Shown piece by piece: positions 22,654 to 39,104 of a stretch of 64,000 bases of DNA. The DNA comes from Alphaproteobacteria bacterium. GTDB lineage: Bacteria > Pseudomonadota > Alphaproteobacteria > DATDPM01. How positions within the stretch are numbered: the stretch's first letter is position 1; each line of letters begins with the position of its first letter. The translations under genes and the position numbers were made by a program. The notes below the pieces were generated by a model. That model worked only from the letters and a program-made list of their open reading frames with translations. It did not search any database and was not told the origin of the DNA. The stretch lies in NCBI GenBank assembly GCA_036475545.1, contig JAZGAE010000155.1:2291-66290 (forward strand). Direction: 5' to 3'.

Positions 22654-23550
22654 CTAGCCGGCGCCGCCGCCGGCGCTCTCCCGAGCGATCCCGGGCAGGG
22701 CGCGCGCGAGCGCGCAGAATTCCTGAACGGTAAGCTCCTCCGCCCGCGCCGTAGGGTCGAGGCCGACGGCGTCGATCAGCGCGGCGGCGTCGAGCCCGAG
22801 AGACTTCAGGCTCGTGCGCAGCATCTTGCGCCGCTGGCCGAATCCGGCCGCCACGACCCGCTCCAGCGCGCCGCGGTCGGCCTCCGCCAGCGGCCGCGGC
22901 CGGGGGATGAGCTGCACCACCGTGGAGGTGACCTTGGGCGGCGGCGTGAATGCGCTCGGCCGGACGTCGAACAGCGCGCGGGCCTCGCACAGCCACTGGA
23001 CCATCACCGACAGCCGGCCGTAGGCCTTGGTCCGCGGCACCGCGGTGATGCGGGCCGCCACCTCCTTCTGGAACATCAGCGTGAGCGACTCGAAGGCGGG
23101 CAGGTCACCGAGCCAGCGCAGGAGCAGGGGCACCGCGATGTTGTAGGGCAGATTGGCGACGATCTTGGCCGGACCTTGCGCCTCGCGCGCCAGCGCCGCG
23201 GCGTCGACCTCGAGGGCATCGGCGGCGACGATCTCGAGCCGCCCGGGGAAGGCGCGCATGAGGCTTTGGAGCGCCGCCACGCACCGCTCATCGCGTTCGA
23301 TGGCGATGACGCGGCGCGCGCCCTCGAGCAGCAGCGCGCGCGTCAGCCCCCCGGGCCCGGGCCCGACCTCGATCACCGTGACCTGGCGCAAGTCCCCCGC
23401 CGCGCGGGCGACGCGGCGGGTGAGGTTCATATCGAGCAGGAAGTGCTGGCCCAGCGCCCGCCGGGCGGTGATCCCGTGCGCGGCGATGACCTCGCGGAGC
23501 GGCGGAAGCTCGGGTCGCTCCGGGGCCACCCTAGTCCCCTCTGTCATCAT
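22654..23550 (-). CDS. rsmA: 16S rRNA (adenine1518-N6/adenine1519-N6)-dimethyltransferase RsmA/KsgA
   Basis: 298 aa from an ATGATG at 23545-23550. Motifs GQHFL, VIEVGPGPGGLT and NLPYNI. Conserved surA-pdxA-rsmA order. Confidence 0.9.
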   Translation of the reverse strand: MMTEGTRVAPERPELPPLREVIAAHGITARRALGQHFLLDMNLTRRVARAAGDLRQVTVIEVGPGPGGLTRALLLEGARRVIAIERDERCVAALQSLMRAFPGRLEIVAADALEVDAAALAREAQGPAKIVANLPYNIAVPLLLRWLGDLPAFESLTLMFQKEVAARITAVPRTKAYGRLSVMVQWLCEARALFDVRPSAFTPPPKVTSTVVQLIPRPRPLAEADRGALERVVAAGFGQRRKMLRTSLKSLGLDAAALIDAVGLDPTARAEELTVQEFCALARALPGIARESAGGGAG

Positions 23551-23580
23551 AGGACGGCACGTGTGATGGCCTTGGGTGAT

Positions 23581-23622
23581 CCTCCGGCGCAGTCCGTTCA
23601 ACTTGACCGGATTATGCTCTAG
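23581..23622. repeat. Copy 1 of a 42-nt dispersed repeat (cctccggcgcagtccgttcaacYtgaccggattatgctctaR); on the minus strand it begins at the pdxA TAG stop
   Basis: It matches 38944-38985 at 41 of 42 positions. It lies between pdxA and rsmA, about 30 nt upstream of the rsmA ATG. Confidence 0.8.
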
Positions 23623-24671
23623 GCGACCGAGGCGGACCTGTCGGCCGCGCTCCGGCGTCGGACCATGTCGGCGGCCATGGCGAGCGCCGCCACGAGGCTC
23701 GATTCGCGCGCTTCGCCGGAGCCGGCGATGTCGAGCGCCGTGCCGTGGTCCGGGGAGGTGCGAACGAACGGCAGCCCCAGGGTGATGTTGACGCCGTGAT
23801 CGAAGTCGATGGTCTTGAGCGGGATGAGCGCCTGGTCGTGGTGCATGCAGATCACCGCGTCGTGGGCGCGCCGCGCCGCCTCGTGGAAAAGGGTATCCGC
23901 GGGCGAGGGGCCGGCGACCTCGAGGCCGAGCGCGCGCAGCTCCGCGACCGCCGGCGCGATGACGTCGATCTCCTCCGAGCCGATATCTCCTTCTTCCCCG
24001 GCATGGGGGTTGAGCGCGGCCACGGCGAGCCGCGGGCGGGCGATAGCGAAATCGGTGACGAGGGACGCCGCCACGACCCGCCCGCAGGCCACGATCCGGC
24101 GCCGGTCGAGCGCGGCGACGGCCTCGGCCAGCGGCAGATGGACCGTGACGGGAGCCACCCTGAGCCCTGGGCAGGCAAGCATCATCACAGGCAAAACGGG
24201 CGCGCCCGTCTCGGCGGCGGCCAGCTTCGCGAGATACTCGGTGTGGCCAGGGTATTCGAACCCGGCCGCATGAAGGGTCTTCTTGTGGATCGGGTTGGTC
24301 ACGACCGCCGCCGCCTCGCCGGCATGGGCGAGCGCCACGGCCCGGTCGATCGAAGCGACGACGGCGGCCGCGTTCTTGGGGTCCGGCCGCCCGGGCGTCA
24401 CCCCTGCCGGCAAGGCCAGCGGCAGCACCGGGAGCGCGGCGGCGAAGGCCCGCGCCGCCTCGCGAGGCGAGCCGACCGCGCGCACGCGCACGGCGAGGCC
24501 GAGGGCGTGCGCCAGCCGCTCGAGCCGGGCCGGATCGTCGATCACGAAGAAGGGGGGCGCCAATCCGTTTCCGCCGCCGGTCCGCCGCAGCCACGCCCGC
24601 AGCGTGATTTCGCCGCCGATTCCGGCGGGCTCGCCCATGGTCAGCGCCAGCGGGACGGAAGCGGACGTCAT
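23619..24671 (-). CDS. pdxA: 4-hydroxythreonine-4-phosphate dehydrogenase
   Basis: 350 aa from the ATG at 24671 (MTSASVPLALTMGEPAGIGGEI). Its start overlaps the surA TGA in an ATGA. Metal-binding His motifs (HTEYL, NPHAGE). Confidence 0.85.
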   Translation of the reverse strand: MTSASVPLALTMGEPAGIGGEITLRAWLRRTGGGNGLAPPFFVIDDPARLERLAHALGLAVRVRAVGSPREAARAFAAALPVLPLALPAGVTPGRPDPKNAAAVVASIDRAVALAHAGEAAAVVTNPIHKKTLHAAGFEYPGHTEYLAKLAAAETGAPVLPVMMLACPGLRVAPVTVHLPLAEAVAALDRRRIVACGRVVAASLVTDFAIARPRLAVAALNPHAGEEGDIGSEEIDVIAPAVAELRALGLEVAGPSPADTLFHEAARRAHDAVICMHHDQALIPLKTIDFDHGVNITLGLPFVRTSPDHGTALDIAGSGEARESSLVAALAMAADMVRRRSAADRSASVA

Positions 24672-36564: not shown

Positions 36565-38325
36565 ATGAAGATCCTCTCCTGCCATGCCGGTTACCACGAC
36601 TCGGCCGCCGCGGTCTTCGACGAATACCGTCTGTTGGCCGCGGTTCAGCAGGAGAGGCTGACCCGCAAGAAAAGCGATGGCAACGGCGTCCCCTTCGCGT
36701 GCATCGACGAGTGCCTGGCGATCACCGGGATATCGCGGCAAGACATCGACGTGGTGGTGGTGACCCGCGGGGCTCTGCCCTGGCGCTACTACACTCACTT
36801 CGCGGGAGGCCGGTTCGTCGAGGGCAAGGTGCGGCAGTGGCTGGGCAAGGAGAAGCTCAAGAGCATGGCTCTCGAGCTGCGGCGTTCCGGCGGCACCCAG
36901 GCAGAGGGGATCTTCAATGGCCGGGGCTTCCTCGTCGATCTCGGGTTTGGCGCCGACGTCAAGCTCGGGTTTTGCAACCACCATATGTCCCATGCCTTGC
37001 CGGCCCTGTTCTACACGGATTGGGATGACGCGCTGTTGGTCACTTCGGACGGGGGCGGCGACAACGTTCAGTACAGCCACCGTGTGTTCCGCGATGGGAG
37101 GATCGAGACCCTCTACGGCGGCGACGAGTACCTGCTGGCGCCGACGCGGATAGACAGCCTTGGCCTCGCCTATGGTTACGCGACGCAGGCGCTGGGCTAC
37201 CGAATCAACCGTCACGAGGGAAAGCTCACCGGGCTCTCGGCCTATGGGAGCCCGGCGCTTTTCGATGACCTCGCCCCGCATTTCACGTTGCACCGGAACG
37301 GCCAGATCGAGAGCGACTTCGAGAGCTACCCGGCGATGCGCCGATTCATCTTCGAGCTGGCGGAAGGAGCGGCGCCGGAAGACGTGGCGGCCTCGATCCA
37401 GAAACTCCTGGAAGAATTCATGTTGGGCTCGGTGCGGCGCCTCCTCGAGCTGCACCCCGTCCGCCACCTGGGCCTCGCGGGCGGGGTGTTTGCGAATGTT
37501 AAACTCAACCGGCTCTTGGCCGAGCACACGGCCGCCGAGGAGGTATTCATATTTCCCGCCATGGGGGACGAGGGCCTCGCCGTGGGCGGCGCGCTTCAGT
37601 TCCTGTTGAAGCGCGACGGGCTGGAGCGGTGGCTGTCCGAGCGCCACCGGCTCGACGACGTTTATCTGGGCAGAGCCTACGACGACAGCATCGATGCGGT
37701 GCTCTGCGAATGTCCCGGGGTGGCCCGAGTCGCGGAGGAGCCCGTGAAAGAGAGCGTGGCGCTACTTGCCTCGGGGCGGATCGGAGCGATTTACACCGGG
37801 CGCATGGAATTCGGGCCGAGGGCGCTGGGCGCCCGGAGCATCCTCGCCAGCCCGCTCGACAGGACGATCAACGCAACCTTGAACGCCCGGCTCGGGCGCA
37901 CCGAGTTCATGCCTTTTGCGCCGGTGGTGGCCGAGGAGGACGCGGAGGCGGTGTTCGAGATCGGTCCGCTTAACCGTTACGCCGGGCGTTTCATGACCAT
38001 GACCTGCGCCGTGCGCGCAGCGTGGCGGGACAAGATCCCGGCGGTCATTCACGTCGACGGGACGGCCCGTCCGCAGATCGTCGCGCGCCACCAGAACCCG
38101 CTCTATTTCGATATCCTCGAGCTCTTCAAGGCGGCGACCGGCCTGCCGGTTCTGATCAACACCAGTTTCAACGTGCACGAGGAGCCGATCGTCAACCGGC
38201 CCGAGGAATGCTTGCAGGCGCTCGTCGATCGTCGTATCGACTTCGTTGTGACCTCGAGGGGGGTCTACGCGATGGCGGACGAGCCGCTTGATGGCCGCCG
38301 AATGGAACCGCCGGAGCACCCGTAG
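36565..38325 (+). CDS. carbamoyltransferase, NodU/CmcH/TobZ family
   Basis: 586 aa. N-terminal ASKHA-like domain (MKILSCHAGYHDSAAAV...QQERLTRKKSD). HHMSHA motif. C-terminal YrdC-like carbamoyltransferase domain. Confidence 0.8.
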   Translation: MKILSCHAGYHDSAAAVFDEYRLLAAVQQERLTRKKSDGNGVPFACIDECLAITGISRQDIDVVVVTRGALPWRYYTHFAGGRFVEGKVRQWLGKEKLKSMALELRRSGGTQAEGIFNGRGFLVDLGFGADVKLGFCNHHMSHALPALFYTDWDDALLVTSDGGGDNVQYSHRVFRDGRIETLYGGDEYLLAPTRIDSLGLAYGYATQALGYRINRHEGKLTGLSAYGSPALFDDLAPHFTLHRNGQIESDFESYPAMRRFIFELAEGAAPEDVAASIQKLLEEFMLGSVRRLLELHPVRHLGLAGGVFANVKLNRLLAEHTAAEEVFIFPAMGDEGLAVGGALQFLLKRDGLERWLSERHRLDDVYLGRAYDDSIDAVLCECPGVARVAEEPVKESVALLASGRIGAIYTGRMEFGPRALGARSILASPLDRTINATLNARLGRTEFMPFAPVVAEEDAEAVFEIGPLNRYAGRFMTMTCAVRAAWRDKIPAVIHVDGTARPQIVARHQNPLYFDILELFKAATGLPVLINTSFNVHEEPIVNRPEECLQALVDRRIDFVVTSRGVYAMADEPLDGRRMEPPEHP

Positions 38326-38466: not shown

Positions 38467-38889
38467 ATGGCCGTCGAACGAACGCTTTCAATCCTCAAGC
38501 CCGACGTCACGCGCCGCAATCTCACCGGCGAGGTCAACGCGCGTCTGGAGCGGGCAGGCTTGCGCATCGTGGCGCAGAAGCGCATGTGTCTAACCCGCGA
38601 GCAGGCGGAAAAGTTCTACGCCGTGCACGCCAGCCGCTCTTTCTTCAAGGACCTGTGCGAGTTCATGATTTCCGGCCCGGTGGTGGTCCAGGTCCTCGAA
38701 GCCGAGAACGCGATCGCGCTCAACCGCGACGTCATGGGCGCCACCAATCCGGCTAATGCCGCGGAGGGGACGATCCGCAAGGACTTCGGCGAGTCGGTCG
38801 AAGCGAACTCGGTCCACGGATCGGATTCGCCCGAGACCGCTGGATGGGAGGTCGCTTTCTTCTTCGCCGAAATGGAGATCGTCGGCTGA
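38467..38889 (+). CDS. ndk: nucleoside-diphosphate kinase
   Basis: 140 aa. Motifs [10 protein letters not shown] and NSVHGSDS (active-site His). Confidence 0.95.
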
Positions 38890-38943
38890 GCTCTCGCTCC
38901 GGACCGGCGCTTCGCGCCCCGCTCCGGCCCGCGGCACAAAATT

Positions 38944-38985
38944 CCTCCGGCGCAGTCCGTTCAACCTGACCGGATTATGCTCTAA
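38944..38985. repeat. Copy 2 of the 42-nt dispersed repeat; on the minus strand it begins at the TAG stop of the 40-aa CoxIV-like gene
   Basis: 41 of 42 positions identical to 23581-23622. Confidence 0.8.
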
Positions 38986-39104
38986 GTGAGGAAGAGGGCC
39001 ATCAGCGCCAGAATCGCGGCGATACCAGCGGTGCTGATGTTGAGCAGTCTGATGAAGCCTTTCCAGTCATGCTGGTGCCGCTGCAATTCGCTGTCCACGG
39101 ACAT
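38982..39104 (-). CDS. small membrane protein resembling aa3-type cytochrome oxidase subunit IV (COX4_pro_2-like), 40 aa; absent from the ORF track
   Basis: The start is an ATG at 39102-39104 preceded by AAGGGGGAAG, and the stop is a TAG at 38982-38984. The translation is MSVDSELQRHQHDWKGFIRLLNISTAGIAAILALMALFLT. This has a His-rich N-terminus, a KGF(I/V)RL motif and a single TM helix ending in LMA(L/I)FLT, matching my recollection of alphaproteobacterial CoxIV peptides. Confidence 0.45.
   Translation of the reverse strand: MSVDSELQRHQHDWKGFIRLLNISTAGIAAILALMALFLT

Follow-up and report, generated by a model that had tools for sequence, protein, structure and literature searches.

A 42-nt repeat at two TAG stop codons in an alphaproteobacterial genome and its probable origin in IS630-family mobile elements

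The repeat and the insertions that contain it

The window considered here is a 64-kb stretch of DNA with a G+C content of 68%, and its source is an uncultured alphaproteobacterium whose PdxA shares no more than about 69% identity with named proteins of Stellaceae and Azospirillum. Two near-identical strains, one from a metagenome assembly (L001, GCA_044240385.1, 99.8%) and one from a JGI metagenome (L006, 3300037247, 99.1%), carry whichever copies of the repeat they cover. The repeat is found at two loci. Copy 1 lies within surA-pdxA-rsmA, where it follows pdxA (product 350 aa; homologues PF04166), and copy 2 lies between ndk and a convergent 40-aa open reading frame (ORF), the ATG version of which has a weak match to PF07835 (COX4_pro_2).

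In a preliminary description, positions 23581-23622 were said to recur at 38944-38985 with a single transition. The recurrence stands, but the count does not, as there are two mismatches at those coordinates (T/C at 23603/38966 and G/A at 23622/38985) and a shift of one base is needed to leave one. In this best register, 23580-23621 matches 38943-38984 over 42 nt save for the T/C transition. Such a match is indeed beyond chance, since none of 100 dinucleotide-preserving shuffles gave one, and a word-7 blastn search of the 64-kb window confirmed that there is no third copy. As described, the first three bases of each copy on the minus strand are a TAG stop, that of pdxA (23621-23619) or of the 40-aa ORF (38984-38982), and identity ends there, with the copies diverging one base 5' of the TAG (C vs T). 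The placing of copy 1 within the operon was also correct; the repeat stops 30 nt short of the first in-frame rsmA ATG (23550). Both copies are non-coding, and tblastn with an IS630 transposase returns nothing in either. No T-tract is present inside the repeat, although an AATTTTG sits just outside copy 2, after it, and the internal stem is as weak as reported (-12.9 kcal/mol, z about -1.9). Folding of the 101-nt contexts of both copies, a check asked for in the same description, gives structures no better than those of shuffles. What has to be given up is the 42 nt as a unit. This segment is the conserved end of elements of 86 bp and 95 bp whose remaining parts are different (Table 1), and these larger insertions were invisible to a reader who saw one end of them.

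Table 1. Positions of the two copies and of neighbouring features in the window
Feature	Position	Strand	Basis or remark
Copy 1, MITE-like non-coding insertion, 86 bp	23534..23619	-	One 88-column MAFFT gap in L002, L004 and L005; minus-strand reading GAGCATAATCC...GAGGGGAC
Copy 1 TIR and subterminal region, common to copy 2	23580..23619	-	40 nt match IS ends
16-nt core of copy 1, GAGCATAATCCGGTCA	23604-23619	-	16/16 identical to the L013 IS end
TA target duplication, pdxA side	23620..23621	.	Within CTAG 23619-23622
TA target duplication, rsmA side	23532..23533	.	Within CTAG 23531-23534
Putative new rsmA translation-initiation region	23527..23550	-	Mostly in the insertion's unique tail; comparison with relatives and L006 gene call
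In-frame ATG ATG	23550-23545	-	rsmA initiation region
SD-like GAGGGG	23541-23536	-	rsmA initiation region; 5 nt upstream of the GTG
GTG	23529-23527	-	rsmA start in the JGI gene call of L006
Copy 2, 95-bp remnant	38888..38982	-	Homology to the L007 copy and to the putative longer element's right end across the full 95 nt
Copy 2 TIR and subterminal region	38943..38982	-	Shared with copy 1
Copy 2 flanking TA	38983..38984	.	TA and the element's G form the stop TAG (38984-38982, minus)
40-aa COX4_pro_2-like ORF	38982-39104	-	Stop TAG made by the TA and the copy 2 G
ndk stop TGA	38887..38889	+	GA is the first two bases of the degenerate end of copy 2
Window head, GAGCATAATCCGGTCARGTTGAACGGACTGCGCCGGAGG			Head of the repeat in the window

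The insertion at copy 1 is clearly seen in comparison with relatives L002/L003, L004, and L005, whose PdxA is 75-79% identical to that of the window. These have an empty site at which the pdxA stop adjoins or overlaps rsmA, by 8 nt in L002 and L005, while the 99%-identical strain L006 has the insertion. With a slash marking the junction, the site reads GTTGCCTAG/AACGGC (GCCTAG/AACGGC) in L005, and in the window it reads GTCGCCTAG, then the inserted DNA, then CTAG/GGTGGC. The clean 88-column gap in the relatives means that the window lineage gained 86 bp and a duplicated TA, and the repeat noticed earlier covers just the left 40 nt of the inserted 86 bp. On both sides the TA lies within CTAG, where three relatives have a single site, and the TA on the pdxA side forms the pdxA stop together with the first G of the element. 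The right end of copy 1 (GTCCCCTCTG...) is no TIR, and the 46-nt tail has no match to IS ends, to the longer MITE of relatives, to the window, or to the loci compared. Copy 1 thus has a single recognisable TIR yet a clean TA duplication, a combination that counts against the transposition reading. An IS5-type 4-bp YTAR duplication would be indistinguishable from a TA duplication at this site, but the ISs found belong to the IS630 family.

Copy 2 makes up the entire spacer of the convergent ndk and COX4-like genes. Its TIR is intact on the COX4 side, and a degenerate GAGCTCTCGCTCCGG end (GAGCTC...) overlaps the ndk TGA, so that its flanks are TA on one side and T alone, not TA, on the ndk side. 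The right end, GAGCtctcgcTCCGG, is weakly similar to the TIR and does not provide a good second one. Homology between copy 2 and its counterpart in L007 past the GAGCTC and into the 3' end of ndk is not significant (p=0.42). The L007 copy is about 90% identical to copy 2 over 97-100 nt and lies 1.7 kb away in the same syntenic block, in the opposite orientation and inside the 5' end of an ORF, 10 nt upstream of its ATG; no element follows the COX4-like ORF of L007. The ORF entered by the L007 element (L007 137-146 vs L008 1254-1330) is a conserved 179-aa frame that apparently restarts at an internal ATG preceded by GAGGAG, and it is 24 codons shorter than the L008 ORF.

Further copies suggest that a longer element exists in these relatives. 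The L008 copy adjoins the TAG stop of ndk, and L029, which extends the L008 contig, has another at the TAG stop of a 202-aa ORF. Over 127 nt the latter shares 97.7% identity with the copy next to ndk, and it runs on into a segment that matches the start of contig L007 at 97.6% identity. When these pieces from two organisms are joined, the result is a hypothetical MITE that measures about 270 nt and is bounded by imperfect TIRs of 32 nt. The full 95 nt of copy 2 can be aligned with the right end of this MITE, and for this reason a truncated derivative is the best reading of copy 2. The contigs themselves break within the element, with L008/L029 ending about 127 nt into it and L007/L030 starting at about element position 137. 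That two independent assemblies break inside the repeat suggests that the longer MITE is multi-copy in those relatives, and copy density is 2 in the 64-kb window and 1-2 per 4-10 kb in relatives. The holC-ndk region also differs in gene content. A 586-aa carbamoyltransferase gene (36565-38325, plus strand) lies between holC (DNA polymerase III chi) and ndk in the window and is absent from the relatives, and a 154/179-aa ORF between pepA and holC in the relatives is absent from the window, the stretches compared being L007 146-1163 and L008 1254-2349. Synteny is otherwise kept in this block, and the difference amounts to a lineage-specific gain or loss of genes.

IS630-family ends and related copies elsewhere

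A match to the head of the repeat comes from Komagataeibacter saccharivorans (L013), in which a complete IS with two facing heads occupies positions 1865-2921 and measures 1,052 bp from one flanking TA to the other. The termini of this IS are TA/GAGCATAATCCGGTCA... and ...GATCGGATTATGCTC/TA. The product of orfA is an HTH_Tnp_IS630 protein, also matched by PF01710, that corresponds to the N-terminal part of the IS630 model. The product of orfB matches DDE_3 (PF13358, 2e-28) and the curated model NF033545, 'IS630 family transposase', with 119 bits against a cut-off of 100. A DDE_3 transposase, an N-terminal HTH, and a match to the curated family model together place this reference IS in the IS630 family. 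An A8 run at about 2478-2485 (T8 on the plus strand) separates orfA and orfB and is probably a programmed -1 frameshift site for making the full transposase.

Elements of this kind are widespread. A tblastn search with the L013 transposase found 538 plasmids, mainly alphaproteobacterial, many of them with genes annotated 'IS630 family transposase'. Four ISs from Roseomonas, Sphingobium, Rhizobium, and Mesorhizobium have lengths of 1,042-1,053 bp, a GAGC start, a GCTC end, and TA flanks. Across 27 compiled ends, drawn from ISs, mini-palindromes, and copies from the window clade, TA is the flank at 25, and C precedes the TA in 18 of these 25, so that the junction is typically CTA/G. The left 40 nt of both window copies match the IS ends significantly (p<0.005 against shuffles), while the right parts of both copies have no significant match to IS ends. 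The window copies have several of the properties of a MITE, namely an IS630-like TIR, a small size without transposase coding, and signs of mobility in the form of empty orthologous sites and different positions in L007 and L029. No IS630 transposase was found in the 64-kb window by tblastn, and a cognate transposase elsewhere in the genome would have to mobilise the elements in trans.

The head is also found in other genomes apart from complete ISs. The first pattern used, the 22-nt GTTCAACYTGACCGGATTATGC, had 0 matches in genome contigs and 0 in metagenome contigs, the latter collection being without L006, which carries the pattern. The pattern covered the less conserved inner half of the repeat. 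Comparison of the orthologous ndk loci of relatives shows that the conserved part is the head, (C)TAGAGCATAATCCGGTCA. A scan with an 18-mer of the head gave 7 matches each in genome contigs and in a set of metagenome contigs that is without some known carriers. Some of these matches, which fall in coding DNA of unrelated taxa of lower G+C, are due to chance. Small TIR-loop-TIR elements with (C)TA...TA(G) flanks are present in L009, L017, L019, and the Sphingobium plasmid L023, and these four, along with the reconstructed element of about 270 nt, have two good TIRs. L020 has a copy of the head after the TAG stop of a Yip1-like gene. Searching a plasmid collection with the 42-mer (blastn) returned two Sphingobium palindromes and nothing else, a scan of viral contigs gave one chance match in a contig of 35% GC, and a full-text literature search for the sequence found unrelated primer matches alone.

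Several of these loci have features of their own. On the Sphingobium plasmid (L023, AP027325), convergent genes are separated by a 40-bp TIR-TIR palindrome (1501-1540) and the T-rich tail after it, and a related hairpin at about 640-672 on the minus strand also has a T-rich tail; both mini-palindromes resemble intrinsic terminators. The 44-bp TIR-TIR element of L017 (2151-2198) is bordered by CTAG at either end, and the two TAGs, on opposite strands, close open frames of 89 and 368 codons, so that two convergent genes may each take a junction TAG as their stop. L009 and L010, two alphaproteobacterial MAGs with different flanking genes at these sites, share the 12-mer CTATACGCCCGA (L009 3768-3779, L010 2935-2946) exactly 12 nt upstream of a TA/GAGC head. 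It may be part of a longer conserved module or of a common insertion context.

Target choice, stop codons and competing readings

Both copies are very probably non-autonomous derivatives of the IS630/Tc1-mariner family, one of them a MITE and the other a MITE remnant, and the repeat is an ordinary mobile-element relic and no new signal. Points that speak against this reading are the single TIR of copy 1, the one-sided TA and weak second TIR of copy 2, the lack of an IS630 transposase in the window, and the small number of contigs matched by exact-pattern scans with the head. The suggestion of a small MITE-like element with TAG/TA preference was thus essentially right, given that the head is an IS630-family TIR and that copy 1 is absent from relatives. 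The shared 40-42 nt would be the TIR, where the transposase binds, plus a little subterminal sequence. Insertion would proceed by cut-and-paste at TA, by preference a TA inside 5'-CTAG-3', with duplication of the TA. This agrees with the passage of PMC2170065 in which, with reference to Tenzen & Ohtsubo 1991, IS630 and ISY100 duplicate TA and IS630 prefers a TA in CTAG.

The association with stop codons can be understood from this target. All ends of this IS630 subgroup begin with G, which means that the junction is always TA/G. When the element enters the TA of a TAG or TAA stop, a TAG in the same frame is therefore restored and the gene stays whole. Insertions that disrupt genes would be purged by selection. 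The window has 20 CTAG sites where about 189 are expected from base composition, an approximately ten-fold depletion, and about 6 of the 20 close coding-like frames. With a target that is scarce and often at stops, a terminal G in the element, and selection acting within genes, surviving copies would collect at stop codons. In five of the six copies in the window clade, an in-frame TAG immediately precedes the head, which lies in the sense orientation, and in qualitative terms target choice and selection appear to be enough for this number. The finding matters chiefly for annotation, in which the repeat should be described as IS630-family MITE/TIR remnants rather than a regulatory motif. More widely, the two copies offer a worked example of how a TA/CTAG-targeting transposon with G-first ends lands on stops without gene damage, and they show that in high-GC genomes target choice and CTAG scarcity can together give rise to apparent 'stop-codon-associated motifs'. 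We regard it as unlikely that the one-TIR derivatives of this subgroup are anything beyond decaying relics, whether through exaptation of the TIR at the TA/G stop junction, where it may act as a 3'-end or processing hairpin, or through one-ended mobilisation with foreign tails.

An RNA element selected for its position after stops, such as a 3'-UTR stabiliser, an RNase site, a terminator, or a protein or sRNA site, would make the likeness to transposons secondary. The five of six sense copies at TAG stops, the modest hairpin of the head, and the sole substitution between the copies, which turns an A-U pair into G-U, can be read in this way, as can the AAUUUUG after the copy 2 hairpin and the T-rich tails after the Sphingobium TIR-TIR palindromes. 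Against this, ISs that carry a transposase have the first 16-18 nt of the head at each of their two ends, and other sites of the head are a divergent promoter region in L009, positions 5' of genes in L010, and, in reverse, the inside of an ORF's 5' end in L007. In the L008 and L020 copies the hairpin lacks its 3' half, the 101-nt contexts fold like shuffles, neither copy has a terminator or promoter consensus, and 0 matches to Rfam 15 at the gathering threshold were found in the window and five related loci. An RNA element is for these reasons quite improbable as the general explanation, and the two versions of it in the preliminary description, a conserved 3'-UTR or processing signal and an RNA-binding-protein or sRNA site, find no support in the same evidence, with the head present at IS termini, in divergent promoter regions, and within an ORF 5' end, and with a hairpin that is not conserved in L008 and L020. 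It is possible that individual copies have been exapted as RNA signals. A UAG read-through or PYLIS-like signal was rejected on account of the same head at IS ends and non-stop positions, and a sigma-70 promoter because CATAAT and TTGACC are in the wrong order or spacing.

Local duplication or gene conversion between loci 15 kb apart would fit with only two copies in 64 kb that are nearly identical over 42 nt and have different tails; this is largely refuted, and very hard to uphold, given the TA/CTAG duplication and the precise empty site in three relatives at copy 1, the head in unrelated genomes and at IS ends, and copies at other positions in relatives. A REP/REPIN moved by a RAYT (Y1) transposase, or an element of the IS200/IS605 type with insertion 3' of a target that contains TAG, would likewise be short, extragenic, hairpin-forming, and located at gene ends, and the tetranucleotide-like (C)TAG conserved 5' of the hairpin and the missing second TIR of copy 1 could be taken for its marks. 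We give this almost no credence, as the head is the TIR of DDE (DDE_3) IS630-family elements, complete small copies have two inverted TIRs with TA on both sides, and no GTAG head, hundreds of copies, or RAYT link is seen here. No RAYT gene is present among the window ORFs inspected, and the 'REP-like' wording used earlier should be dropped, since the head (C)TA/GAGC is a DDE-IS end and the hairpin is not conserved among copies. Barely conceivable, too, is a palindromic operator (CCGnTCAAnTTGAnCGG) or a dif/Xer-like recombination site, a notion that comes from reading an imperfect 17-bp palindrome and a GCATAA that recalls XerC arms. The copy 2 substitution weakens the palindrome, both copies follow a stop codon on the coding strand of the gene, copy 1 lies between two genes of one operon and copy 2 between convergent genes, and conservation across genomes covers the first 16-18 nt, not the palindrome. 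The identity of the head with IS ends also refutes an operator or dif/Xer-like site.

Among known systems, the closest analogue of the proposed IS630-family derivatives is RUP (repeat unit of pneumococcus), a MITE of roughly 107 bp with IS630-Spn1-like TIRs and TA targets (PMC2229807) that is thought to be mobilised by IS630-Spn1. The window copies are similarly short (86 and 95 bp), non-coding, and TA-flanked, with an IS630-type TIR. RUP, however, carries a TIR at both ends and reaches about 100 near-identical copies in a genome, whereas the window copies have one good TIR each and different tails, a high-GC alphaproteobacterial host, and insertion sites at CTAG/TAG stop codons. The IS630-family ISs themselves (IS630, ISY100, and IS870) have termini of the same type as the window elements, TA/GAGCATAATCCG..., and members of the IS630 subgroup are annotated in Komagataeibacter, Acetobacter, Roseomonas, Sphingobium, and rhizobia. 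Compared with these ISs, the window elements lack a transposase and are more than ten-fold shorter. For the stop of its ORF to be complete, IS870 depends on a CTAG target (Fournier 1993, cited within PMC13630536). The junction TAG of IS870 thus ends its own ORF, while that of the window elements ends a host gene. The Correia/NEMIS elements of Neisseria are TA-flanked MITEs that are found in intergenic positions and in operons and can alter the expression of neighbours (PMC2229807). The window elements resemble them in flanks and location but have no sequence similarity to them. Correia elements, for their part, have a 24-bp TIR at either end as well as IHF sites, and promoters and RNase III sites are documented for them. 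REPs are described in PMC2817692 by a GTAG head, hundreds of copies, and a link to a RAYT gene. Like the window copies, REP/BIME sequences are short extragenic hairpin repeats near gene ends; they depend on a Y1 enzyme, have a GTAG head, and show no TA duplication, in contrast to the DDE-type end and TA duplication seen here.

The rsmA start

In relatives, rsmA begins at a TTG that overlaps the end of pdxA, and the same codon is GTC in the window. Judging from the alignment and the candidate signals listed in Table 1, the tail of copy 1 now appears to supply the ribosome-binding site and start codon of rsmA, the ancestral pdxA/rsmA overlap having been broken. If true, an 8-nt coupled overlap has given way to independent initiation, and copy 1 would be a small, tidy example of MITE-mediated operon remodelling in which the pdxA/rsmA overlap was swapped for a new initiation region. 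The same type of transposon that settles on stops can in this way split overlapping coupled genes, regenerate the upstream stop, and supply the downstream start. At the other end of pdxA, surA and pdxA overlap by 4 nt (24668-24671). Taken with the pdxA/rsmA overlap of the relatives, this indicates a chain of translational coupling in which the insertion severed one link.
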